Source: Deltaproteobacteria bacterium (GTDB taxonomy: Bacteria > Desulfobacterota > GWC2-55-46 > JADFVP01). Taken from it: DNA of 64,000 bases. Where the stretch lies: assembly GCA_024275045.1 (NCBI GenBank), contig JAJRZX010000036.1, positions 19,615 to 83,614 on the forward strand, given 5' to 3'. Under the pieces are notes generated by a model, which saw only the letters and a list, made by a program, of their open reading frames with translations, was not told the origin of the DNA and did not search any database. Positions 870 to 45,632 of the stretch are shown here, in pieces. Position 1 is the stretch's first letter, and the number at the start of each line of letters is the position of its first letter. A program made the position numbers and the translations under genes.

Positions 870-1682
870 ATGGTGAATTATAATATGCAAAAAAGACAAA
901 GCGATTTTCGTTGTTCAGGTTTAATATCAGTAAGGAAGTTTCGCCGCGTATCTATTGCGGTTGTCTTTCTTTTTTTTATCTTTACTGCCGGCTGCACCTC
1001 TTTAAGGATAGTGAAAGAGAGTTACAGAAATGCGGAGGAGATGTACAAGACCGGGGTGAGCCAGTATAACTCACTGCATTATGAGGATGCGGAAGGGACT
1101 TTTGAAAAACTCATGGAAAGGTATCCCCTCAGCTCCTATGCCCTTGAGGGCGAGATAATGCTTGCCGATGTCCTGTACATGGATGAAAAGTATGATGAGG
1201 CAAGGGTTTATTATACGGATTTCGTGGCCCTTCATCCTTCACACGCAAAGGCCTCGTACGCTTTATTTCAAAAAGGTATGTGTTATTTTCGTAATGTCCT
1301 TTCTCTTGACAGGGACCAGACCACTACGAGAAAGGCCATTATCGCCTTTGAAGACCTTACCAGGCAATTTCCATTCTCTTCGTATAATGAGAGGGCAGAG
1401 GAGCTTATAGCCTTTCTTAAGAGACGTCTTTCCGAGAGGGAGCTTTATGTGGGGATGTTTTATCTCAAGAAAAAGAACTACAAAGGCGCGCTGGCAAGAT
1501 TTAATACTATCTTGAAGGAGTATCCCGAGTCTGAGGAAATAGATGAGGTGCTTTTTTACATAGTTAAGTCTTATTCCAAGCTTGGCGAGGATGACCGTGC
1601 CCGTGACGTCTTCTCAACCCTTCAGGCGGATTATCCTTCAAGCTCATATACAAAGGCCGCAGGGAAGATAATCGGCGGTTAA
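870..1682 (+). CDS. bamD: Outer-membrane assembly lipoprotein BamD-like (TPR lipoprotein)
   Basis: A signal peptide with lipobox FTAGC is followed by TPR-like repeats typical of BamD/YfiO. Sequence similarity judged by eye only. Confidence 0.55.
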   Translation: MVNYNMQKRQSDFRCSGLISVRKFRRVSIAVVFLFFIFTAGCTSLRIVKESYRNAEEMYKTGVSQYNSLHYEDAEGTFEKLMERYPLSSYALEGEIMLADVLYMDEKYDEARVYYTDFVALHPSHAKASYALFQKGMCYFRNVLSLDRDQTTTRKAIIAFEDLTRQFPFSSYNERAEELIAFLKRRLSERELYVGMFYLKKKNYKGALARFNTILKEYPESEEIDEVLFYIVKSYSKLGEDDRARDVFSTLQADYPSSSYTKAAGKIIGG

Positions 1683-1704: not shown

Positions 1705-1793
1705 GTGGGCGGCTAATGCGTGCTTGAGTGTGTGTAAGCTCATCCCCCTATTGGTTTTCTTTGCTTACTTTCTTTTTTCCAAAAGAAAGTAAG
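1705..1793. repeat. Copy 1 of a ~90-bp dispersed repeat ending in a perfect 13-bp-stem hairpin (CTTACTTTCTTTT-ttcc-AAAAGAAAGTAAG).
   Basis: Shares ~80% identity over ~85 bp with each unit of the tandem array at 23075-23326. The hairpin half recurs at 35521-35562. It lies between the convergent bamD and alaS 3' ends. Confidence 0.7.
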
Positions 1794-1794
1794 A

Positions 1795-4437
1795 TTATGT
1801 GGAAAGGTTTTTTATCGTCTCATAGGCTTGTTCCAGGGCCTTGTTTATCTTTGTGCCATGGGGCCCGCCTGCTTGAGCAAGCTCGGCCCTGCCCCCGCCT
1901 CTGCCGCCTATAATCGGTGCGAGGTCTTTTATTATCTCACCTGCATTATATTTTTTCGTCAGGTCTCTTGTAACCGCCACAAGTAGTACGGCCTTGTCTT
2001 CTGAGGCGGCACCGATGACTACGATGCCTGAGCCAAGTTTTTGTCTGAGGTTATCGGCCATATCGCGGAGGATTTTCGCCTCTGTATCCTCGGCCTTGTA
2101 AGCAAGCACTTTTACACCGTTTATCTCACACACCTCACTCATGGTCTGGCCGCTCGCTTCTGCCGCGGCCTTTTTCTTAAGCGCCTCAATTTCTTTTTCC
2201 ATAACGCGCTGTCGGGTGAGCATGTTTTTTATTTTTTCACCAACCTCGGTCTTTGATACTTTGAGGGCTGCCGCAGCCTCTCGCAGCGCCTCTTCTTCGC
2301 TAAAGACTGTCTCAAGGGCACCTGTGCCGGTGGTAGCCTCAATGCGTCTAATGCCTGAAGCTACGGAGCTCTCTGCCGTAAGTTTTATAAGTCCGATATC
2401 TCCGGATCTCTGCACATGCGTGCCTCCGCAGAGCTCTTTACTTACCCCGGGCAGACTTACGAGACGTACATTGGCACCGTATTTATCATCAAAAAAAGCC
2501 AGAGCACCGGCCTTGACAGCCTCGTCATAGGCCATGACGGCTGTGTTTACCTTGATGTTTTTTAAAACTCCCTCATTTGCCTTTTTCTCTATTGCCTTAA
2601 TTTCCTCATATGTAAGGGCGGAAAAGTGGCTGAAATCAAATCTAAAGCCATCTGCGCTTACAAGGGAGCCGCGCTGGCGCACGTGATCGCCAATAAGCTC
2701 ACGAAGGGCCGCGTGTACAATGTGCGTGGCCGTATGGTTTCTGCGGATAGCGGAGCGGCGCTCTTCGTCGGGGTGCAGCACAACGCTATCGTCAACTTTC
2801 AACTCGCCTTTGTTTATACGGCAGTGGTGAACGATAATATCAGGCACGGGTTTTGTAGTGTTCATAACCTCTACTTCAAGCCCCTCTGCCATTATTACTC
2901 CAGTATCACCTACCTGACCGCCTGATTCGCCGTAAAAGGGCGTTTCCTCGGTAATTATATCCACCTCATCACCGGCAGCTGCGGATTCAAGGCTTTCTTG
3001 CCCCTTAAAGATGTGCAGAATTCTTGATGATGAGGAGTTTGAATCGTATCCGGTAAAGGCGGTCTTAACCCCTGCGGCTGCAAGGGCACGGTATTTATCA
3101 CTCTCATTAGAGCCCTCTCCGCCTTTCCACGCGAGGCGCGCTTTTTTTCTCTGCTCCTCCATGGCGGTCTTGAAACCAGCATCATCAACGGTAAGGCCGT
3201 CTCTATTTATAATATCCGCGGTAAGGTCAACGGGAAAGCCGTAGGTATCGTATAATTTAAAGGCAAATGGACCCGGCAGTACGGTCTTATTGCTTTTCTT
3301 AAGGTCCCTTACCTCTGTCTCAAGGATCTCCAGACCCCGTTCAAGGGTCTGTAAAAAACTCTCTTCTTCGGCCCTTGAGGCCCGCTGAATAAGACTCTCC
3401 TCTTCTTTTATCTCAGGGTATATGGGGCTCATTAGTTCAATAACAGTGGAGATAACCGGGCCGAGAAAGGGCTCTGTAAGGCCGAGAAAGCGGCCGTGAC
3501 GAAGGGCCCGTCTTATGATGCGGCGAAGTACGTAGTTTCTCCCTGTATTACCGGGCAGCACCCCCTCTGCCATTAAAAAAGTAATAGCTCTGCTGTGGTC
3601 GGCAATGGCCTTTAGCGATATATCGGCGTCAGGGTTTGAGAGGCTGGCCTCGGGGATAAGGTCTTTGATTGTATTGAGTATGGGTACAAAGAGGTCTGTC
3701 TCGTAATTTGAGGTAACGCCCTGCATTACGGCTGATAGCCTCTCAAGGCCCATGCCCGTATCAATGGAAGGTTTGCTGAGGGGTTTGAGCGTGCCGTCGC
3801 TGAGGCGGTTGGACTCCATGAATACGAGGTTCCATATCTCAAGGTAGCGGTCACACTCACAGCCTACGCGGCAATCCGGGGCCCCGCAGCCAAGTCCTTC
3901 GCCCTGGTCTATGAGTATCTCAGAGCAGGGGCCGCATGGACCGGTGCTGCCCATTGACCAGAAGTTGTCTTTTGCGCCAAGGCGCACAACTCTATCTGCA
4001 TTTACATTGCGGTTTTTTATCCATATATCCGCGGCATCGTCATCGTCCTTATATATGGTAACCCAGAGCTTATCAACGGGCAGACCCATGACAACCGTAA
4101 GAAAATCCCAGGCAAACTCCGTGGCCTCGTCCTTAAAGTAGTCGCCAAAGGAGAAGTTTCCAAGCATCTCAAAGAATGTATGATGGCGCGCGGTCTTGCC
4201 TACGTTCTCAAGGTCGTTATGCTTGCCGCCTGCGCGCATACACTTCTGGCTTGATACCGCCCTCTTGTAATCCCTACTCTCTTCGCCGAGAAATACTCCC
4301 TTGAACTGTACCATGCCCGCGTTGGTAAAGAGCAGAGTAGGGTCCTGCGCGGGAATAAGCCCTGATGACGGGACGTGGCAGTGCTCTCTTGCGGCAAAAT
4401 AATCAATAAACGCCTTTCTTATATCCGAACTTTTCAT
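1795..4437 (-). CDS. alaS: Alanyl-tRNA synthetase
   Basis: An 880 aa protein with the class II AlaRS N-terminus (MKSSDIRKAFIDYFAAREH...), an editing domain and a C-terminal DHHA1-like region. Confidence 0.95.
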   Translation of the reverse strand: MKSSDIRKAFIDYFAAREHCHVPSSGLIPAQDPTLLFTNAGMVQFKGVFLGEESRDYKRAVSSQKCMRAGGKHNDLENVGKTARHHTFFEMLGNFSFGDYFKDEATEFAWDFLTVVMGLPVDKLWVTIYKDDDDAADIWIKNRNVNADRVVRLGAKDNFWSMGSTGPCGPCSEILIDQGEGLGCGAPDCRVGCECDRYLEIWNLVFMESNRLSDGTLKPLSKPSIDTGMGLERLSAVMQGVTSNYETDLFVPILNTIKDLIPEASLSNPDADISLKAIADHSRAITFLMAEGVLPGNTGRNYVLRRIIRRALRHGRFLGLTEPFLGPVISTVIELMSPIYPEIKEEESLIQRASRAEEESFLQTLERGLEILETEVRDLKKSNKTVLPGPFAFKLYDTYGFPVDLTADIINRDGLTVDDAGFKTAMEEQRKKARLAWKGGEGSNESDKYRALAAAGVKTAFTGYDSNSSSSRILHIFKGQESLESAAAGDEVDIITEETPFYGESGGQVGDTGVIMAEGLEVEVMNTTKPVPDIIVHHCRINKGELKVDDSVVLHPDEERRSAIRRNHTATHIVHAALRELIGDHVRQRGSLVSADGFRFDFSHFSALTYEEIKAIEKKANEGVLKNIKVNTAVMAYDEAVKAGALAFFDDKYGANVRLVSLPGVSKELCGGTHVQRSGDIGLIKLTAESSVASGIRRIEATTGTGALETVFSEEEALREAAAALKVSKTEVGEKIKNMLTRQRVMEKEIEALKKKAAAEASGQTMSEVCEINGVKVLAYKAEDTEAKILRDMADNLRQKLGSGIVVIGAASEDKAVLLVAVTRDLTKKYNAGEIIKDLAPIIGGRGGGRAELAQAGGPHGTKINKALEQAYETIKNLST

Positions 4438-13190: not shown

Positions 13191-13486
13191 GACGTATTTT
13201 ACCTGTGAGCGGAGTAGTTGTTTAATCTCTGTCTGAGTGATGCCGCGGGCAGCGCCCGGCTGAGTGAGAGTGTGGATGAAAACCGCAAGCGTGAAGCGGT
13301 AGTTTTTTACAGCGGGCCCTGATTCTCTGTCAATGCCCAGGGGGTTTTATTTTTTGAGCCGTACCCAATATGCCTTGGCCGCCCTTTTAGTGCCTTCGTG
13401 CCCCTCTTGTGCCTTTGTGCCATCCTGCTTCCCATCTGCCCCTTAGCCGAGTATTGCCCCTTTATACCATTTTGCTTCCCACTTGC

Positions 13487-13620
13487 CCCTCTCGCCCTTT
13501 CGCCCAATTACTCTCTCTCCCACTTGCCCCCTCTCGCCCTTTCGCCCCATTACTCTCTTTCCCACACGCCCCTCGCCCTTTCGCCCCATTACTCTCTTTC
13601 CCACACGCCCCTCGCCCCTT
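13487..13620. repeat. About 3.5 tandem copies of a ~40-bp C-rich unit (G-rich on the mre coding strand) in the mreB-mreC intergenic region.
   Basis: The unit is ctcgccctttcgccccattactctctttcccacacgcccc. Copies fall at ~13491, 13533 and 13573, with degenerate copies flanking. The ORF-track ORFs 13398..13703 and 13409..13630 are translations of this repeat. Confidence 0.8.
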
Positions 13621-13626
13621 GGTGCC

Positions 13627-14658
13627 TTAGTTGGGCAGGGTTACTTCTTTTAAGAGGGTTATCTCGTCAAGGAGTCTGCCCGCGCCTTTTACAACGCATG
13701 TGAGAGGGTCCTCGGCAATGGTTACGGGGAGCATGGTCTCTTCGCGAAGTATTACATCAAGGTTTTTTATAAGCGCCCCTCCGCCGGCAAGTACAAGACC
13801 TTTGTCAACAAGGTCTGCGGCAAGCTCCGGAGGAGTGGTCTCAAGTACGTGTTTTATGGCGTCAATGAGTGCGCTGATAGGTTCGTTCATGGCCTCGCGT
13901 ATCTCCTGACCGCCTATCTCCAGTGTGGTGGGTATGCCTGTGATGAGGTTGGAACCCTTTATCTCCATTCTGGCGGTATCGTCATCAGGCAGCGGCAGCC
14001 CGAAACGCATCTTTATGTTCTCGGCGATACCTGTGCCCACGGCAAGGTTGTATTTTCTTTTAATGTACTGCGAGATTACCTGATCAAGCATGTCTCCGCC
14101 AACGCGTATTGACTTTGAGCGCACTATGCCCGCAAGTGAGATAACGGCTATCTCCGAGGTGCCGCCGCCGATGTCCACTATCATGTTGCCCGAGGGCTCT
14201 GTGATTGGAAGACCCGCTCCAATGGCCGCGGCCATTGGTTCCTCGATAAGGTAGACCTCTGAGGCCCCGGCGGAGTAGGCTGATTCTTTAACTGCTCGTT
14301 TCTCCACCTGCGTAATGCCCGAGGGTACGCCTACGATGATGCGGGGGCGCACAAAGAACTTTCTGTTGTGAACCTTGGCGATAAAATATTTCAGCATCTC
14401 TTCGGTTATCTCAAAGTCGGCTATGACGCCGTCTTTTAAGGGCCGTATGGCTGAGATATTGCCCGGGGTCTTGCCGAGCATGGCCTTGGCGTCTTTGCCT
14501 ACAGCAAGAACGCGCTGACTCCCGCCGTCGCGTTTTACGGCAACCACTGAGGGCTCGTTGGTTACTATGCCTTTGCCTTTTACGTATATAAGGGTGCTTG
14601 CCGTGCCAAGGTCTATGGCAAGGTCATTTGAGAATATATTCAGAAATTTGTTAAGCAT
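13627..14658 (-). CDS. mreB: Actin-like rod shape-determining protein MreB
   Basis: A highly conserved actin/Hsp70 fold (DLGTASTLIYV..., DIGGGTSEIAVISL). Confidence 0.95.
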   Translation of the reverse strand: MLNKFLNIFSNDLAIDLGTASTLIYVKGKGIVTNEPSVVAVKRDGGSQRVLAVGKDAKAMLGKTPGNISAIRPLKDGVIADFEITEEMLKYFIAKVHNRKFFVRPRIIVGVPSGITQVEKRAVKESAYSAGASEVYLIEEPMAAAIGAGLPITEPSGNMIVDIGGGTSEIAVISLAGIVRSKSIRVGGDMLDQVISQYIKRKYNLAVGTGIAENIKMRFGLPLPDDDTARMEIKGSNLITGIPTTLEIGGQEIREAMNEPISALIDAIKHVLETTPPELAADLVDKGLVLAGGGALIKNLDVILREETMLPVTIAEDPLTCVVKGAGRLLDEITLLKEVTLPN

Positions 14659-22000: not shown

Positions 22001-22318
22001 GGAATATTATCCATCTTTGTATAGAGTTATTCCCTGCATCCGGATCTCATTTGAGATAAGAGAAGGGTATATGCTTTGAGAGAGGGGGGTAGTATCCTGG
22101 CCTGTAACATTTTATTGATCCAGGCATGTCCTCTCGTGTCCCGTAGATTTTACGATGGACTTGTACTTTTTTCAAGCTTCCTACAAAAAAGTATGCGAAA
22201 GAGTATCTGTCTGTTTTTTAGCCCCAAACCAGCTTTTCTCCCGTATACAGGCTAATTGAGGCAGGCTTTATACGGCACTGTTTTTGCCTTTGTTTGCTTA
22301 AAAAAACCTAAAAACACC

Positions 22319-22709: not shown

Positions 22710-22961
22710 GTGGCTCATAAAAAAGCAGGCGGAAGCTCAAGAAACGGCAGGGACAGTAACGGGCAGAGAAGAGGAGTAAAGTGCTTTTCAGGGCAGACGG
22801 TACCTGCGGGTTCCATTATAATAAGACAGCTCGGCACCAGGGTGCATCCCGGTGATAACGTGGGAATGGGCAGAGATTACACTATTTTCGCCCGTGTTAA
22901 CGGTACTGTTCAGTTTGTTGATAAGGGTAAGAGAAAGTTCGTAAACATATTACCCGTATAA
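22710..22961 (+). CDS. rpmA: 50S ribosomal protein L27
   Basis: [16 protein letters not shown]... Confidence 0.95.
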
Positions 22962-23018
22962 TATCAGGGTTTTATTAAGGTTACGGGGCGGAGTAAGGGG
23001 AGTTTAATATCAAAGCCG

Positions 23019-23070
23019 GGCGGAGTAAGAGGAGATAGTGAACCTCTTAATATTCCGCCCTTTTTTATTT
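23019..23070 (+). terminator. Rho-independent terminator after rpmA
   Basis: An imperfect GC-rich stem (GGGCGGAGTAAGAGG ... CCTCTTAATATTCCGCCC) followed by TTTTTTATTT. Confidence 0.5.
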
Positions 23071-23074
23071 GTGA

Positions 23075-23326
23075 GTCCTGTGGGCAGATAATGTATCGTT
23101 AGCCGGTTGTAAGCTTCTCCCTTTGGTTTTCTTTATCTTACTTTCTTATATAAGGTCCTGTGGGCAGATAATATATCGTTTGCCGGCTGTAAGCTTCTCC
23201 CTTTGGTTTTCTTTGTCTTACTTTCTTATATAAGGTCCTGTGGGCAGATAATGTATCGTTAGCCGGCTGTAAGCTTCTCCCTTTGGTTTTCTTTGTCTTA
23301 CTTTCTTTTTTCCAAAAGAAAGTAAG
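23075..23326. repeat. Three tandem 80-bp units (period 80: starts 23075, 23155, 23235). The last unit ends in the 13-bp-stem hairpin of the dispersed repeat family, which abuts and overlaps the obg RBS.
   Basis: The unit is gtcctgtgggcagataatgtatcgttagccggctgtaagcttctccctttggttttctttgtcttactttcttatataag. Units differ by 2-4 substitutions. The hairpin is at 23297-23326 and the AAGGAGG RBS at 23324-23330. Confidence 0.85.
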
Positions 23327-23340
23327 GAGGTTTTTAAAAG

Positions 23341-24372
23341 ATGAGATTTATAGATGAGGCTGTAATTACAATATGCTCAGGGGACGGCGGCAGCGGCTGT
23401 GTAAGTTTTCGCCGTGAAAAGTTCATTCCCAGAGGCGGTCCTGACGGCGGTGACGGCGGCCGCGGCGGCGCAGTGATTATGCGTGCCGATCCTAACCTTG
23501 CGAGTTTGTTGGATTTTCGATACAAGCGCAGTTATGCGGCGGATTCGGGAAAGAGCGGCATGGGCGGTAATAAGTCAGGTAAAAAGGGTGAGGATATAGT
23601 GCTTGGCGTCCCTTGCGGCACATTGATATTAGACGCGGCCTCAGGTGTTGTTATCGCCGATATTACGGACCTTGATGATGAGATACGTATTCTTGAGGGC
23701 GGCAGAGGCGGCAAGGGTAACGCGCACTTTAAGAGTTCAAGGCAGCAGGCCCCGAAGTTTGCCCAGCCAGGTGAAGAGGGTCAGGAGTTGGATATAAGGC
23801 TTGAGCTCAAGCTGCTTGCTGATGTGGCTATTATAGGGCTGCCAAACGCCGGTAAATCCACGTTAATATCTCGTATCTCGGCGGCCAAACCTCGCATTGC
23901 CGATTATCCCTTTACCACGCTTACGCCCATGCTGGGTGTGGTAAAAAAAGACAATTTTTCCGAGTTCATCATCGTGGATGTGCCCGGCCTTGTAGAGGGT
24001 GCCCATAGCGGCAAAGGGCTTGGCATAAGGTTTTTAAAGCATGTTGAGAGGACGAGTTTTCTGCTCCACCTTCTTGACCTATCTCCTTTTACGGGCAGGG
24101 ACCCCAAGGAAGATTTTTTCATGATAAACAAGGAGCTTGCGTCCTTTAACGAGTCGCTCTCAAAGCGGCCTCAGGTTGTTGTACTTAATAAAACCGATAT
24201 TACCGGCACAGAGGAGCTGGAGGAAGAACTCTTGAGTTTTTTCCATGCTTCAGGTATAAAGGTTTTTTCAATCTCAGCTGTAACAGGCAAGGGTGTTGAA
24301 GTGCTTGTAAAGTTCGTAGGCGCCGAGCTTGAGAGGATGAAGCAGGGAGAAGGGGGGCTGGCAGGGCGGTGA
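23341..24372 (+). CDS. obg: GTPase Obg/CgtA
   Basis: An Obg fold with a glycine-rich N-domain and G1-G5 motifs (GLPNAGKST, DVPGL, NKTD). Confidence 0.95.
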   Translation: MRFIDEAVITICSGDGGSGCVSFRREKFIPRGGPDGGDGGRGGAVIMRADPNLASLLDFRYKRSYAADSGKSGMGGNKSGKKGEDIVLGVPCGTLILDAASGVVIADITDLDDEIRILEGGRGGKGNAHFKSSRQQAPKFAQPGEEGQELDIRLELKLLADVAIIGLPNAGKSTLISRISAAKPRIADYPFTTLTPMLGVVKKDNFSEFIIVDVPGLVEGAHSGKGLGIRFLKHVERTSFLLHLLDLSPFTGRDPKEDFFMINKELASFNESLSKRPQVVVLNKTDITGTEELEEELLSFFHASGIKVFSISAVTGKGVEVLVKFVGAELERMKQGEGGLAGR

Positions 24373-35489: not shown

Positions 35490-35526
35490 GGGGCGGCCAT
35501 GTAAGAGAGGCCGCCCCTTTTTGATT
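35490..35526. terminator. Bidirectional Rho-independent terminator between the convergent FG-GAP and PAP2-GT genes
   Basis: A 9-bp GC stem (GGGGCGGCC / GGCCGCCCC) with an A6 tract upstream and T5GATTTT downstream. Confidence 0.6.
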
Positions 35527-35562
35527 TTCTTTGCTAACTTTCTTTTTTCCAAAAGAAAGTGG
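35521..35562. repeat. Partial copy (distal ~42 bp) of the dispersed hairpin repeat family
   Basis: ttgattttctttgctaactttcttttttccaaaagaaagtgg aligns with 1751-1793 and 23283-23326. Confidence 0.6.
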
Positions 35563-35566
35563 AGGT

Positions 35567-41681: not shown

Positions 41682-41755
41682 TGGAGCGGGCGATGGGAAT
41701 CGAACCCACGTGTGCAGCTTGGGAAGCTGCCATTCTACCATTGAATCACGCCCGC
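41682..41755 (-). tRNA. tRNA-Gly (anticodon CCC) with encoded CCA
   Basis: The reverse complement folds as a cloverleaf: acceptor GCGGGCG/CGCCCGC, D-arm ATTC..GAAT, anticodon stem GCAGC/GCTGC with loop TTCCCAA, T-arm GTGGG-TTCGATT-CCCAT. Confidence 0.85.
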
Positions 41756-45473: not shown

Positions 45474-45632
45474 ATCTTATCCAGAGTGGCGGAGGGACTG
45501 GCCCGATGAAACCACAGCAACCGGTACCGTAAAAGGTATGACAGGTGCTAAATCCAGCAGAGACGGTTAAACGTCTCTGGAAGATAAGAAGAATTACTGG
45601 ACACTCTTCTTATTAAAGAAGGGTTTTTTTTT
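45474..45632 (+). ncRNA. SAM-I (S-box) riboswitch with intrinsic terminator
   Basis: P1 runs 5' ATCTTATCCAGAG to 3' CTCTGGAAGATAAGA. Conserved cores present are GGCGGAGGGACTGGCCCGATGAAACC, GCAACC and AGGTGCTAAATCCAGCAGAG. An 8-bp terminator stem with a T9 tract follows. The antiterminator is GATAAGAAG pairing with CTTCTTAT. Confidence 0.85.

Follow-up and report, generated by a model that had tools for sequence, protein, structure and literature searches.

A dispersed intergenic repeat of uncultured Thermodesulfobacteriota with a core predicted to fold into three strands

Three sites in the window, a 64,000-nt stretch of contig JAJRZX010000036.1 from a Deltaproteobacteria bacterium, belong to a REP/BIME-like intergenic repeat family that proliferates to high copy number in a clade of uncultured, sulfate-reducer-like Thermodesulfobacteriota and in some Nitrospirota. 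The selected part of the repeat is a core of ~50 nt, 5'-AYTGG-UUUUCUUU-G(U)-(13-bp stem with a pyrimidine 5' arm, a purine 3' arm and a UUCC loop)-3'. On the strength of sequence comparison, this core is predicted to form an intrastrand pyrimidine-motif triplex of the 'class IV' order, closed as a small H-type pseudoknot. The best explanation as a whole, to which we assign a probability of about 0.5, would be a selected REP/BIME-like repeat whose triplex pseudoknot core acts as a roadblock in RNA.

Window copies and spread of the family

The 89-nt repeat that a preliminary description of this DNA had placed at 1705-1793 of the plus strand (site 1) is present as described, and the flanking genes named there are right by Pfam (BamD/YfiO, AlaS, L21, L27, Obg, FG-GAP, PAP2+PMT_2). 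Every window copy lies on the plus strand, and a same-strand gene is located upstream of each of the three (Table 1). The 30-nt palindrome CTTACTTTCTTTTTTCCAAAAGAAAGTAAG occurs exactly twice in the window, at 1764-1793 and 23297-23326, with 0 occurrences expected from 100 shuffles. A covariance model of the family detected full matches at 23278-23329 (76 bits), 1746-1796 (73 bits) and 35516-35566 (58 bits), together with truncated matches at 23118-23157 and 23198-23237. The site 1 hairpin has a stability of ~-14 kcal/mol (centroid structure) in ViennaRNA, which models the hairpin only and cannot model a triplex; the stop codon of alaS (1795-1797, minus strand) lies 1 nt from its end.

Tandem Repeats Finder described the array as 23075-23307, with a period of 80, 2.9 copies and 96% matches. 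All of its units share parts of the element, in line with the claim that the repeat recurs in each unit, but the complete palindrome is found in the last one only: units 1 and 2 retain GTGGGCAG...TTGGTTTTCTTTRTCTTACTTTCTT and carry ATATAAG in place of the upper stem and the purine arm. The last three stem bases of unit 3 are the first three of the obg Shine-Dalgarno sequence AAGGAGG. On the upstream side, the array is adjoined by the likely rpmA terminator, which belongs to the context and lies outside the repeat. A CRISPR-like array was ruled out, the window array's 'spacers' being 96% identical; a sigma-54 promoter in TTGGTTTTCTTTGC was ruled out by hand (GG-to-GC spacing of 10 vs 12), and a consensus scan of 22900-23400 found no sigma-70 promoter.

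At site 3, the stem comprises 10 bp (35537-35546 with 35551-35560) and the outer pairs are degenerate. The hairpin core had been called identical at all sites, which is true of the inner 10 bp and the loop (24 nt, 35537-35560) but not of the outer three pairs, which are lost here. The terminator at 35490-35522 stands where the 5' module would be, in the spacer between the FG-GAP and PAP2/PMT_2 genes.

Table 1. Positions of the repeat copies and adjoining signals in the window
Feature	Position	Strand	Description
Site 1, 5' module (long form)	1705-1748	+	GTGGGCGG...CCCCC; short G-rich/C-rich closing helix enclosing a variable interior hairpin
Site 1, AYTGG linker (TATTGG)	1749-1754	+	Conserved; GG 1753-1754 proposed to pair with loop bases as the 5' strand of pseudoknot helix S1
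Site 1, third strand	1755-1763	+	TTTTCTTT plus conserved G; near-invariant (n = 103 copies); mirror relation kept in variant families
Site 1, 13-bp hairpin	1764-1793	+	5' arm 1764-1776, TTCC loop 1777-1780, purine arm 1781-1793; outer pairs covary
rpmA terminator (likely)	23018-23066	+	GGGCGGA...TCCGCCC plus TTTTTT; G+C-rich hairpin and T6 read from the sequence
Array units 1 and 2 (80 bp each)	23075-23239	+	5' module, third strands 23127-23134 and 23207-23214, truncated 5' arm, no purine arm (CTTACTTTCTT-ATA-TAAG)
Array unit 3 (complete long form)	23240-23326	+	5' module 23240-23281, GG 23285-23286, third strand 23287-23294; hairpin with 5' arm 23297-23309, loop 23310-23313 and purine arm 23314-23326
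obg ribosome-binding site and start	23324-23343	+	AAGGAGG 23324-23330, ATG 23341; Obg by Pfam domains GTP1_OBG and MMR_HSR1
Classical G+C-rich terminator hairpin	35490-35522	+	GGGGCGGCC...GGCCGCCCC plus T5; -38 kcal/mol, z = -4.1 (ViennaRNA)
Site 3, core-only copy	35523-35560	+	GA, third strand TTTTCTTT 35525-35532, G, CTA, stem, TTCC loop

Outside the window, the 24-nt hairpin core was found in at least 95 stretches from at least 14 MAGs, mostly Thermodesulfobacteriota and 4 Nitrospirota, with at least 108 exact 24-mer cores within these stretches. In 643 kb, the covariance model scored ~155 sense-strand matches at 36 bits or more, ~50 of them without the exact 24-mer that had served as the query. 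The presence of the core in so many stretches and MAGs, in two phyla and at non-homologous loci upholds the earlier proposal of a functional dispersed element rather than chance, and it contradicts a local duplication confined to the window sites. Among related stretches, blastn against the window recovered the repeat itself and one coding match (68% identity over 630 nt, window 14008-14637 vs stretch L026). Rfam searches of the window and 15 related loci returned no family at the gathering score, and at E values up to 10 returned chance miRNA-type hairpins only. Viral contigs gave 0 matches to the 24-mer core, and thus no link to phages.

Conservation, covariation and the predicted triplex

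The repeat had been viewed as a palindrome with divergent flanks. The palindrome is indeed conserved, but the upstream GGTTTTCTTTG is conserved to the same degree and is mirror-related to it: the conserved core reads GG-TTTTCTTT-G(T)-(13-bp stem, TTCC loop), of which the palindrome is only a part. TTTTCTTT mirrors the 5' arm and so repeats the purine arm AAAAGAAA in parallel, as a pyrimidine copy. This mirror symmetry between GGTTTTCTTTG and the palindrome indicates a three-stranded fold, in which Hoogsteen U/T·A and C+·G triples are predicted between the site 1 tract and the purine arm. The class IV blocks in the window, each of at least 8 nt and the first parallel to the third, are TTTTCTTT, CTTTCTTTT and AAAAGAAAG. 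In the flank, both G of the GG are conserved in 95-98% of copies and the A at -5 in 76%. Loop 2 measures 4 nt, and the third strand is separated from the matching part of the 5' arm by G, 0-2 nt and the 4-5 nt that form the paired stem base. The link of only 1-2 nt from the third strand to the stem base counts against the triplex, although loop 1 of pseudoknots would make it plausible by analogy. Downstream of the core stem are three purines and then a T-rich stretch. The long form (28 copies, 88-93 nt) begins with GYGGGRCG, and the closing helix of its 5' module keeps GGGG/CCCC pairs, with G-U at some positions; RNAalifold found no conserved structure in the interior of the module beyond these closing pairs.

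The covariance analysis that the preliminary description had suggested bears out a selected hairpin. Of 171 copies, 153-167 have a Watson-Crick pair at each of the outer four stem positions, where 3-4 pair types occur. A perfect palindrome of 24-30 bp with a strictly conserved inner sequence might also be expected of an operator for a dimeric DNA-binding protein, or be put down to chance or local duplication. However, the symmetric outer positions covary as base pairs instead of staying fixed, which makes the protein recognition site put forward earlier unlikely; the element is asymmetric, with its conserved tract on the 5' side only; and hundreds of copies beside unrelated genes in two phyla stand against 0 matches expected by chance. 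We regard this explanation as extremely improbable.

Covariation extends to the upstream tract. When only the hairpin was used as the query, the canonical core was preceded by TTTTCTTTG in 99 dereplicated cases and by TTTCTTTTG in 0. Conversely, the variant stem ACTTTTCTTTC/GAAAGAAAAGT was found with [C/T/G]TTTCTTTTG at 120 metagenome loci; after dereplication, 59 carried [C/T/G]TTTCTTTTG and 0 the canonical tract. The lengths of the T-runs equal those of the A-runs in parallel order in 138 of 160 dereplicated pyrimidine/purine hairpins, spanning nine run-length classes, and in reversed order in 0; these covariation counts are of sequences, not of independent events. Single variants also obey the mirror rule, as in stretch L141, where an extra G is matched by an extra C. 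Furthermore, the dinucleotide flanking the third strand on its 5' side covaries with loop positions 2-3: within one third-strand type, the pairs are CG:CG (12), GG:CC (11) and UG:CA (3), with 4 non-complementary, and a further combination is UGGC:GCCA. Since no copying process makes mirror repeats, selection on a fold is the simplest cause of the mirror relation. Attenuator-type Watson-Crick pairing between tract and purine arm would require the tract to repeat the 5' arm directly; it was rejected as the main constraint, exact direct copies numbering 0 of 74 in the canonical family, 3 vs 39 in the main variant and 0 of 160 in the run-length matrix.

Which strand folds is not told apart by the counts of stem-base wobbles (12 G-T vs 9 A-C). 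G-U pairs are implied in S1, where GG faces UUCU or UUCA loops. The pyrimidine motif is the triplex type known to form in RNA (PMC4666352, PMC7583470). Against the triplex, the one C+·G-C triple requires a protonated C.

Genomic context and competing readings of function

Genes around the copies were called with a codon-usage score and a Pfam check. By our own calls, 98 of 131 copies lie between genes; the calls that put a copy inside a gene are mostly spurious ORFs across repeats. Co-directional spacers hold 28 copies in sense and 20 in antisense, and the orientation bias relative to neighbouring genes is not significant; antisense copies occur within real operons (trpF-x-trpB and bioB-x-aminotransferase). 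On the whole, we infer a REP/BIME-like dispersed repeat of the 'potential intrastrand triplex' kind that would function as a roadblock in either RNA or single-stranded DNA.

For RNA, we propose the following mechanism, whose first three steps are drawn from covariation. The pyrimidine-tailed strand would fold on itself into the hairpin. The upstream pyrimidine tract would lie in the major groove of the upper 8-10 bp, parallel to the purine arm, forming U·A-U triples and one C+·G-C triple. A helix of 2-4 bp between the two pre-tract bases and the loop would then close the fold into an H-type pseudoknot. In most copies, the pyrimidine-tailed strand would be part of a neighbouring gene's transcript, where its compact three-stranded fold would be a very stable, exonuclease-resistant roadblock that shapes ribosome access. 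Such a roadblock could mark off mRNA segments between tightly packed genes and make them more stable, like REP hairpins, and beside a Shine-Dalgarno sequence, as at obg, it may set the context of translation initiation. The family would copy itself within genomes, with the 5' module as a variable accessory hairpin. We give this mechanism slightly less than even odds. The leaning towards RNA derives from the compatibility of the pyrimidine motif with RNA, the G-U pairs in S1 and the 5' module, the same-strand upstream genes and the ORF starts in Nitrospirota, where the five canonical copies each lie 11-22 nt upstream of a same-strand ORF start. Four of these five ORFs are Pfam-confirmed (atpD, mreB, and aconitase-family small and large subunits); the fifth (L065) has no Pfam match and an uncertain TTG start. 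Antisense copies in operon mRNAs could provide a hairpin only, without a pyrimidine-motif triplex; like the lack of a significant orientation bias, they count against the RNA mechanism.

The position of many copies at gene 3' ends raises the question of a plain hairpin signal, either a bidirectional intrinsic terminator or a stabiliser of mRNA 3' ends, with the pyrimidine tract as the U-tract of a preceding G+C-rich hairpin. Convergent spacers hold 24 copies and divergent ones 7, a convergent stop codon lies 1-25 nt from the hairpin in 36 of 131 copies, a G+C-rich hairpin is often found upstream of the T-rich tract, and one site was scored as terminator-like. This reading, however, leaves unexplained both the mirroring of tract and stem over nine run-length classes and the covariation of flank and loop. 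The stem is A/U-rich, lacks an adjacent U-run and is followed by three purines, and the tract opens with AYTGG and does not directly follow the G+C stem. The bidirectional terminator proposed earlier fares no better: the core stem has 3 G-C pairs out of 13 and no adjacent U-run on the minus strand, and the terminator scan flags 23296-23327 but not 1764-1793. The definition of an intrinsic terminator applies to the separate G+C hairpins at 23018-23066 and 35490-35522, not to the core stem. A plain hairpin signal is thus very unlikely.

We also consider a cis-regulatory leader, whether riboswitch-like, pH-sensing or thermosensing, that would hide or expose the Shine-Dalgarno sequence at the foot of the stem. 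Many hairpins abut GGAGG-type sequences with start codons 5-35 nt downstream, and the obg Shine-Dalgarno sequence overlaps the stem. The cores with which SAM-II and preQ1-II riboswitches sense are triple-helix pseudoknots (PMC13541005). A same-strand ORF start lies within 60 nt of 53 of 93 copies vs 18 of 93 in the reverse-direction control, but this excess, and with it a strict 5'-leader reading, was weakened by the codon-usage gene calls and the Pfam check, and the antisense copies in operons are real. Further arguments against a leader are the unrelated housekeeping genes downstream (atpD, mreB, leuCD-like, argH, E2, PGM and obg), the dozens of copies per genome, the many copies in convergent spacers or in antisense, the lack of an Rfam match and the presence of an SD-like motif within 9 nt in only 21 of 123 copies. 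Collectively, these observations make a regulatory leader unlikely.

Alternatively, the element may act at the level of DNA, folding where DNA is transiently single-stranded (in replication, transcription bubbles or transfer), as a PIT repeat like BoxC/TM_ECO of E. coli, with incidental effects on genes. One strand would adopt class IV (T·A-T) and the other class II (A·A-T), and the fold would serve propagation, through HUH/RAYT-like recognition or through polymerase stalling and template switching, or would modulate local DNA dynamics. In favour of this possibility, orientation is independent of neighbouring transcription, as in the precedent of abundant intrastrand triplex repeats without a gene-orientation bias (PMC4666352). 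One genome (CAZSAY: L005, L035 and twice in L058) holds identical copies that share the same imperfect stem base, pointing to recent copying, and tandem arrays exist. Doublets are head-to-head in 19 cases (17-21 nt spacers) and tail-to-tail in 1, as in REPINs, with 10 tandem pairs, and the sense strand is in weak excess on the G-rich strand (69 vs 47 loci-copies).

Several points weigh against a DNA-level element. The implied G-T wobbles are ill tolerated in DNA, where neutral pH also disfavours the C+ triple. Two species share an orthologous ABC permease-ATPase spacer in which the SD-proximal core is far better kept (49 of 50 positions identical) than the genes (81%) and its own 5' module (51%), a pattern more in keeping with selection at the level of the host than with a selfish copy in decay; gene conversion among copies, rather than local function, could also account for so high a core identity. 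Neither target-site duplications nor terminal inverted repeats are evident. The 5' end GYGGGRCG is not complementary to the 3' end ...AAAGTAAG(G), which removes the inverted repeats expected of a MITE, and the longest word shared by the 14-nt flanks of 26 long-form copies is not above that in shuffled pairings. Consequently, the REP/MITE-like mobile repeat of the preliminary description stands in its REP/BIME-like half (intergenic copies, arrays, inverted doublets) and loses the hallmarks of a MITE. We hold the DNA-level reading to be a real possibility, well short of even odds.

Relation to known systems and meaning

Potential intrastrand triplex (PIT) repeats, exemplified by BoxC/TM_ECO of E. 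coli, were reportedly described by Hoyne and Maher in 2000. The BoxC/TM_ECO consensus is CCCTCNCCC-N3-6-GGGNGAGGG-N3-GGGNGAGGG, a G/C-rich purine motif (C-G·G) of Proteobacteria, and A/T-rich matches in the ITxF catalogue of Holder et al. (2015) were regarded as largely chance (PMC4666352). Like PIT repeats, the present elements are short, dispersed and intergenic, have many copies per genome and no clear tie to the orientation or function of neighbouring genes, and comprise three consecutive homopurine/homopyrimidine blocks on one strand that can fold back twice into a triplex. Their sense strand shows the class IV order of the ITxF scheme (Hoogsteen pyrimidine, Watson-Crick pyrimidine, purine), and the other strand the class II order of TM_ECO. 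Unlike TM_ECO, they are A/T-rich, of unrelated sequence and outside its consensus, and their pyrimidine-motif strand can form in RNA. They add a 4-5 bp stem base, a loop-flank helix and an accessory 5' module, and they occur in Thermodesulfobacteriota and Nitrospirota. In contrast to the A/T-rich matches of the Holder et al. survey, their triplex relation is backed by covariation across families.

Repetitive extragenic palindromes (REP, BIME and REPIN) are mobilised by RAYT transposases and have a known role as stabilisers of mRNA 3' ends. They resemble the present repeat in being short palindromes with tens to hundreds of intergenic copies at gene 3' ends and in operons, in either orientation, clustered with other motifs and in inverted doublets. 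Their GTAG-type tetranucleotide is absent here, and they have no counterpart of the asymmetric conserved pyrimidine tract, which appears in the flank AYTGG-TTTTCTTT-G on the 5' side only. In addition, doublet partners are inverted copies in REPs, whereas here they are mirror types, (a,b) with (b,a).

Among RNAs, the predicted topology is that of the H-type triplex pseudoknots of telomerase RNA, SAM-II/SAM-V and preQ1-II, and we infer for the core the same crossing of two helices, with a U-rich loop 1 parallel to the purine strand of stem 2 in U·A-U triples and a second helix made with the hairpin loop. The K. lactis telomerase RNA pseudoknot includes C+·G-C. Those functional RNAs exist in single copy, have ligand or protein partners and contain 3-5 triples; the present repeat, by comparison, is multi-copy, with 8-10 predicted triples, a stem 1 of 2-4 bp and no match to an Rfam model. 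A second parallel is offered by ENE and MALAT1-type helices, found in PAN RNA, MALAT1, and plant and fungal transposable-element RNAs, which shield RNA from exonucleolytic decay. In these, too, two U-rich strands clamp an A-rich tract through ~10 U·A-U triples with an interrupting C+·G-C. ENEs are known from eukaryotes and their viruses and combine a U-rich internal loop with a 3'-terminal A-tract or poly(A) tail, whereas the purine tract described here comes from bacteria and is supplied by the 3' arm of the hairpin itself.

Dispersed palindromic repeats are common and usually uninformative. Unlike the usual repeats, this one comes with comparative data that directly support a three-stranded fold, the third strand tracking the stem through insertions and base changes. 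To our knowledge, earlier surveys of intrastrand triplexes in bacteria drew on counts of pattern matches and on a single G/C-rich example. Should the core fold in RNA, the small set of natural RNA triplexes would gain a long, ligand-free member, a bacterial analogue of the eukaryotic and viral ENE stability elements; should it fold in DNA, the repeat would be a defined, evolutionarily constrained model of how non-B DNA repeats spread and persist. More speculatively, and we think this rather doubtful, the core could represent a naturally occurring triple helix of bacterial RNA, with 8-10 U·A-U/C+·G-C triples in succession inside a minimal pseudoknot: a modular copy-and-paste 'clamp' with which many environmental bacteria would protect or insulate mRNA segments. 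If true, its triple helix would match that of MALAT1 in length, and bacteria would have a first RNA stability module of the ENE kind, one able to spread like a repeat. Where copies are arrayed or paired as mirror-type doublets, several pyrimidine clamps would then vie for a single purine tract, with alternative folds as the outcome. At 50 nt, the core is short enough to be tested directly by biophysical and reporter assays, and the repeat marks a large share of the intergenic spacers in poorly known lineages of Thermodesulfobacteriota and Nitrospirota.

Architecture of the element and its copies in the window

As stated in the preliminary description, an 89-nt copy of the repeat lies between bamD and alaS on the + strand, and its last 30 nt form an exact palindrome, CTTACTTTCTTTT-TTCC-AAAAGAAAGTAAG, that recurs at the end of the tandem array next to obg, with 0 occurrences expected by chance. 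The array is flanked by the rpmA terminator on one side and obg on the other, and its final unit is a full element whose stem runs into the Shine-Dalgarno sequence (SD) of obg. The palindrome had been assigned to every array unit; it is complete in the last unit, but the purine arm is missing from units 1 and 2. Likewise, the hairpin core described as identical at all sites is so over the inner 24 nt, but not beyond them at the third, core-only site.

Positions of the element and of other features in the window; L-numbered entries are fetched stretches carrying copies
Feature	Position	Strand	Remark
Element site 1, 89 nt	1705-1793	+	between bamD and alaS
bamD	870-1682	+	neighbour of site 1, Pfam-confirmed
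alaS	1795-4437	-	neighbour of site 1, Pfam-confirmed
30-nt palindrome	1764-1793; 23297-23326	+	exact
80-bp tandem array	23075-23307	+	2.9 copies (Tandem Repeats Finder)
G+C-rich terminator	35490-35522		
Core-only copy	35523-35560	+	directly after the G+C-rich terminator
Array unit junctions	23137-23160; 23217-23240		
Motif pair 3' of rpmA	22985-23066		
Hairpin upstream of rplU	22163-22193		
C-rich tandem repeat	13476-13617		period 39-42, 3.2-3.3 copies, unit TTCCCACTTGCCCCCTCTCGCCCTTTCGCCCCATTACTCTCT; + strand around it likewise pyrimidine-rich
tRNA gene	41685-41755	-	RF00005, 66 bits
SAM-I riboswitch	45474-45590	+	RF00162, 85.6 bits, full length
Element 5' of kinase-family gene	L006 1722; L039 3140; L041 966		
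Head-to-head doublets	L026 649-754, 5652-5747; L098 1229-1326; L112 362-457; L197 313-411, 2868-2966; L209 2541-2641; others		

Immediately 5' of the stem, every copy carries AYTGG-TTTTCTTT-G(T). The nine inner stem pairs do not vary. The four outer pairs change freely yet remain paired (CTT/AAG, TCC/GGA, CCT/AGG, CCC/GGG, GTT/AAC, CAA/TTG, with A-T, G-C or C-G as the fourth), and comparison across copies, as the preliminary description had proposed, found them Watson-Crick in 153-167 of 171; the hairpin is therefore a fold of one strand. The long form (88-93 nt, for example site 1) adds to the core a 5' module, GYGGGRCG...CCCC, with variable interior, which in the short form is replaced by a different G+C-rich hairpin.

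Three further features lie within the array or 5' of it. At the unit junctions, loss of the purine arm yields CTTATATAAGG, which with an upstream TTGGTT gives TTGGTT-N18-TATATA, a weak sigma-70-like layout ahead of obg that a consensus promoter scan did not flag. The motif GGGGCGGAGTAAGGGGAG 3' of rpmA is followed by a near-copy, GGGCGGAGTAAGAGGAG, from which the terminator hairpin (GGGCGGA...TCCGCCC plus T6) draws its 5' arm; the pair is a small local duplication. Upstream of rplU, a separate pyrimidine/purine hairpin, GTACTTTTTT-N12-AAAAAAGTA, matched the family covariance model weakly (14.5 bits, E = 0.39); no mirror third strand was found there, and it is therefore probably unrelated.

Mirror third strand and predicted fold

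The tract TTTTCTTT is the mirror image of the 5' arm CTTTCTTTT, not a copy of it. In the same 5'-to-3' direction it equals the purine arm AAAAGAAA with A replaced by T and G by C, as a parallel pyrimidine-motif (Hoogsteen) third strand must. This relation was tested with the hairpin alone as query, the upstream tract being kept out of the search. Canonical hairpins, the type found in the window, carried TTTTCTTTG upstream in 99 dereplicated copies and TTTCTTTTG in 0. Conversely, the variant hairpin ACTTTTCTTTC/GAAAGAAAAGT, first found at a Nitrospirota locus and then fetched from 120 metagenome loci, carried [C/T/G]TTTCTTTTG in 59 dereplicated copies and the canonical tract in 0. When every pyrimidine/purine hairpin of the fetched DNA is counted, T-run lengths in the tract match the A-run lengths of the purine arm read in parallel in 138/160 dereplicated copies and read in reverse in 0/160, over nine run-length classes (2/3, 3/2, 3/3, 3/4, 3/5, 4/3, 4/4, 4/5 and 5/4). 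Moreover, an additional G-C pair at the top of the stem is accompanied by an additional C in the tract, and a G inserted within the purine arm (GAAAGAGAAAG) by the tract CTTTCTC. Copying of DNA gives rise to direct and inverted repeats but does not generate mirror ones; thus, selection on a three-stranded fold is the simplest explanation.

Positions 2-3 of the 4-nt loop covary with the dinucleotide that immediately precedes the tract. Among canonical copies, flank GG accompanies loops UUCC, UUCU or UCCC; within third-strand type CTTTCTTTT, flank:loop combinations are CG:CG (12), GG:CC (11), UG:CA (3) and non-complementary (4); one subfamily shows UGGC:GCCA pairing. Because this covariation occurs together with the mirror third strand, we predict an H-type pseudoknot with a stem 1 of 2-4 bp and a stem 2 of 12-15 bp, in which loop 1, the pyrimidine third strand of 8-10 nt, would occupy the major groove of stem 2. 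By analogy with loop 1 of pseudoknots, the tract would run parallel to the purine arm, with 1-2 nt spanning the deep groove to the stem base. The predicted fold, an intrastrand triplex of the pyrimidine motif with a closing pseudoknot helix, is well supported by sequence comparison.

Spread, copying and genomic context

Scanned against one genome per species, the inner 24-mer occurs in at least 95 stretches; those listed include about nine Thermodesulfobacteriota MAGs (at most 24 stretches from one), four Nitrospirota MAGs, several unclassified MAGs and two probably mis-binned contigs. DNA flanking the fetched copies is unrelated to the window, in agreement with a dispersed family rather than a local duplication. 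Lone canonical copies appear in unrelated phyla, in an Anaerolineaceae MAG (L023) and a Clostridia MAG (L055); mis-binning of L023 is likely, as it shares a co-assembly with the copy-rich MAG CAYOVP. A covariance model built on 103 copies gave about 155 sense-strand matches (the strand with the pyrimidine tract) in 643 kb of fetched stretches, about 50 of them not identical to the query 24-mer. The core was absent from viral contigs, and no Rfam family matches the element.

Neither TSD nor TIR was found at the copies, so the MITE half of the proposed REP/MITE-like character is not supported; a REP/BIME-like, proliferating intergenic repeat is well supported. Four sequence-identical copies in MAG CAZSAY (L005, L035 and two in L058) share one imperfect stem base, which indicates recent copying, and tandem arrays occur repeatedly, in the window and at fetched loci. 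Variant families commonly form head-to-head doublets (19, versus 1 tail-to-tail) of about 95-100 nt, ordered as hairpin, purine tail, spacer of 17-21 nt (often palindromic), pyrimidine third strand and hairpin; this architecture is identical on both DNA strands. Since the partners are mostly mirror types, such as 4/3 with 3/4 (A4GA3 with A3GA4), the first member's purine tail is identical to the second member's purine arm, which would allow alternative clamping.

Other repeats accompany some cores. One variant subfamily is embedded in a conserved composite repeat of greater length, ...GGAGTCGCCGTGCCGCTGG-[triplex hairpin]-AGCGCCCCATGGGACGGCAAGTCCC...CGCGCCGGAGTCGGCGCGTCA, which has no Rfam match (L097, L105, L120, L125, L130, L146, L153, L171, L180, L195 and some 20 further loci from metagenomes); many contigs break off within this repeat, which fits a multi-copy element. 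In MAGs CAYOVP and CAYYJQ, other G+C-rich palindromic families adjoin cores in a BIME-like mosaic (L014, L018, L025, L036, L038, L042, L046, L083 and others), with CCAGCGGCC-N4-GGCCGCTGG immediately 5' of the core and GGCGGGCAGTGCCCGCC close by.

Gene calls rested on a sense/antisense codon score for which the loci themselves served as training set. Intergenic copies lie in co-directional spacers in sense (28) or antisense (20) orientation, in convergent spacers (24) and in divergent spacers (7), indicating avoidance of divergent (promoter) spacers and no significant orientation preference. According to Pfam, sense copies lie just 5' of atpD, mreB, leuCD-like, argH, E2, phosphoglycerate mutase, obg and ABC ATPase genes, and antisense copies inside trpF-trpB and bioB-aminotransferase spacers. 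The element usually fills its spacer, with 1-25 nt left between the hairpin end and a start codon or convergent stop codon. In three species-level MAGs it precedes the same amino-acid-kinase-family gene (MKKVIISIGGNALIR), so spacer occupancy is conserved across species. For canonical copies on loci of at least 4 kb, which are non-independent, the sense strand is the G-rich strand in 69 versus 47 (mean skew +0.017), a weak hint of replication-related orientation, and does not follow the local coding strand (62 versus 54). In an ABC permease-ATPase spacer orthologous in two related species, the SD-proximal core is 49/50 (98%) identical, compared with 81% for the flanking genes, 51% for the 5' module and 65% for a second copy further upstream, whose stem is lost in one species. 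The core at this site is either under purifying selection or homogenised with other copies.

Level of action and relation to known triplex motifs

We favour action of the triplex fold as RNA, with a probability of roughly 45-50%. Of the triplex motifs, it is the pyrimidine type that forms in RNA (PMC4666352, PMC7583470). G-U pairing is implied both for stem 1 and for the 5' module helix, and sense-orientation co-transcription is possible for most copies. Supporting this reading, all three window copies lie after a same-strand gene, each of the five canonical Nitrospirota copies lies shortly before the start of an ORF on its own strand (Pfam confirms four of these as genes), and conservation is strong in the SD-proximal copy of the orthologous spacer. 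The RNA fold would then be a block resisting nucleases and ribosomes, which may mark off mRNA segments and frame the ribosome-binding site of the downstream gene. The main rival reading, in which single-stranded DNA folds in the way suggested for BoxC/TM_ECO, would account for orientation independence, doublets and copying, and the class II purine-motif version on the opposite strand would be possible in DNA only; we regard it as a tentative alternative. The plain-terminator, riboswitch-like and operator readings are a poor match to the data, as is the earlier suggestion of a bidirectional transcription stop signal or protein recognition site.

Abundant intrastrand triplex motifs have been described in prokaryotes (Hoyne and Maher 2000; Holder et al. 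2015, PMC4666352), and the element fits their class IV/II scheme of block orders. Compared with the characterised, G/C-rich BoxC/TM_ECO, its composition, motif type and taxa are different, and it has an extra stem base, a pseudoknot helix and a 5' module. No bacterial multi-copy triplex repeat appears in reviews of RNA triple helices, where the entries are riboswitches, group II introns and telomerase/ENE-type elements. What is new here is direct comparative support for the triplex, via three-way covariation.
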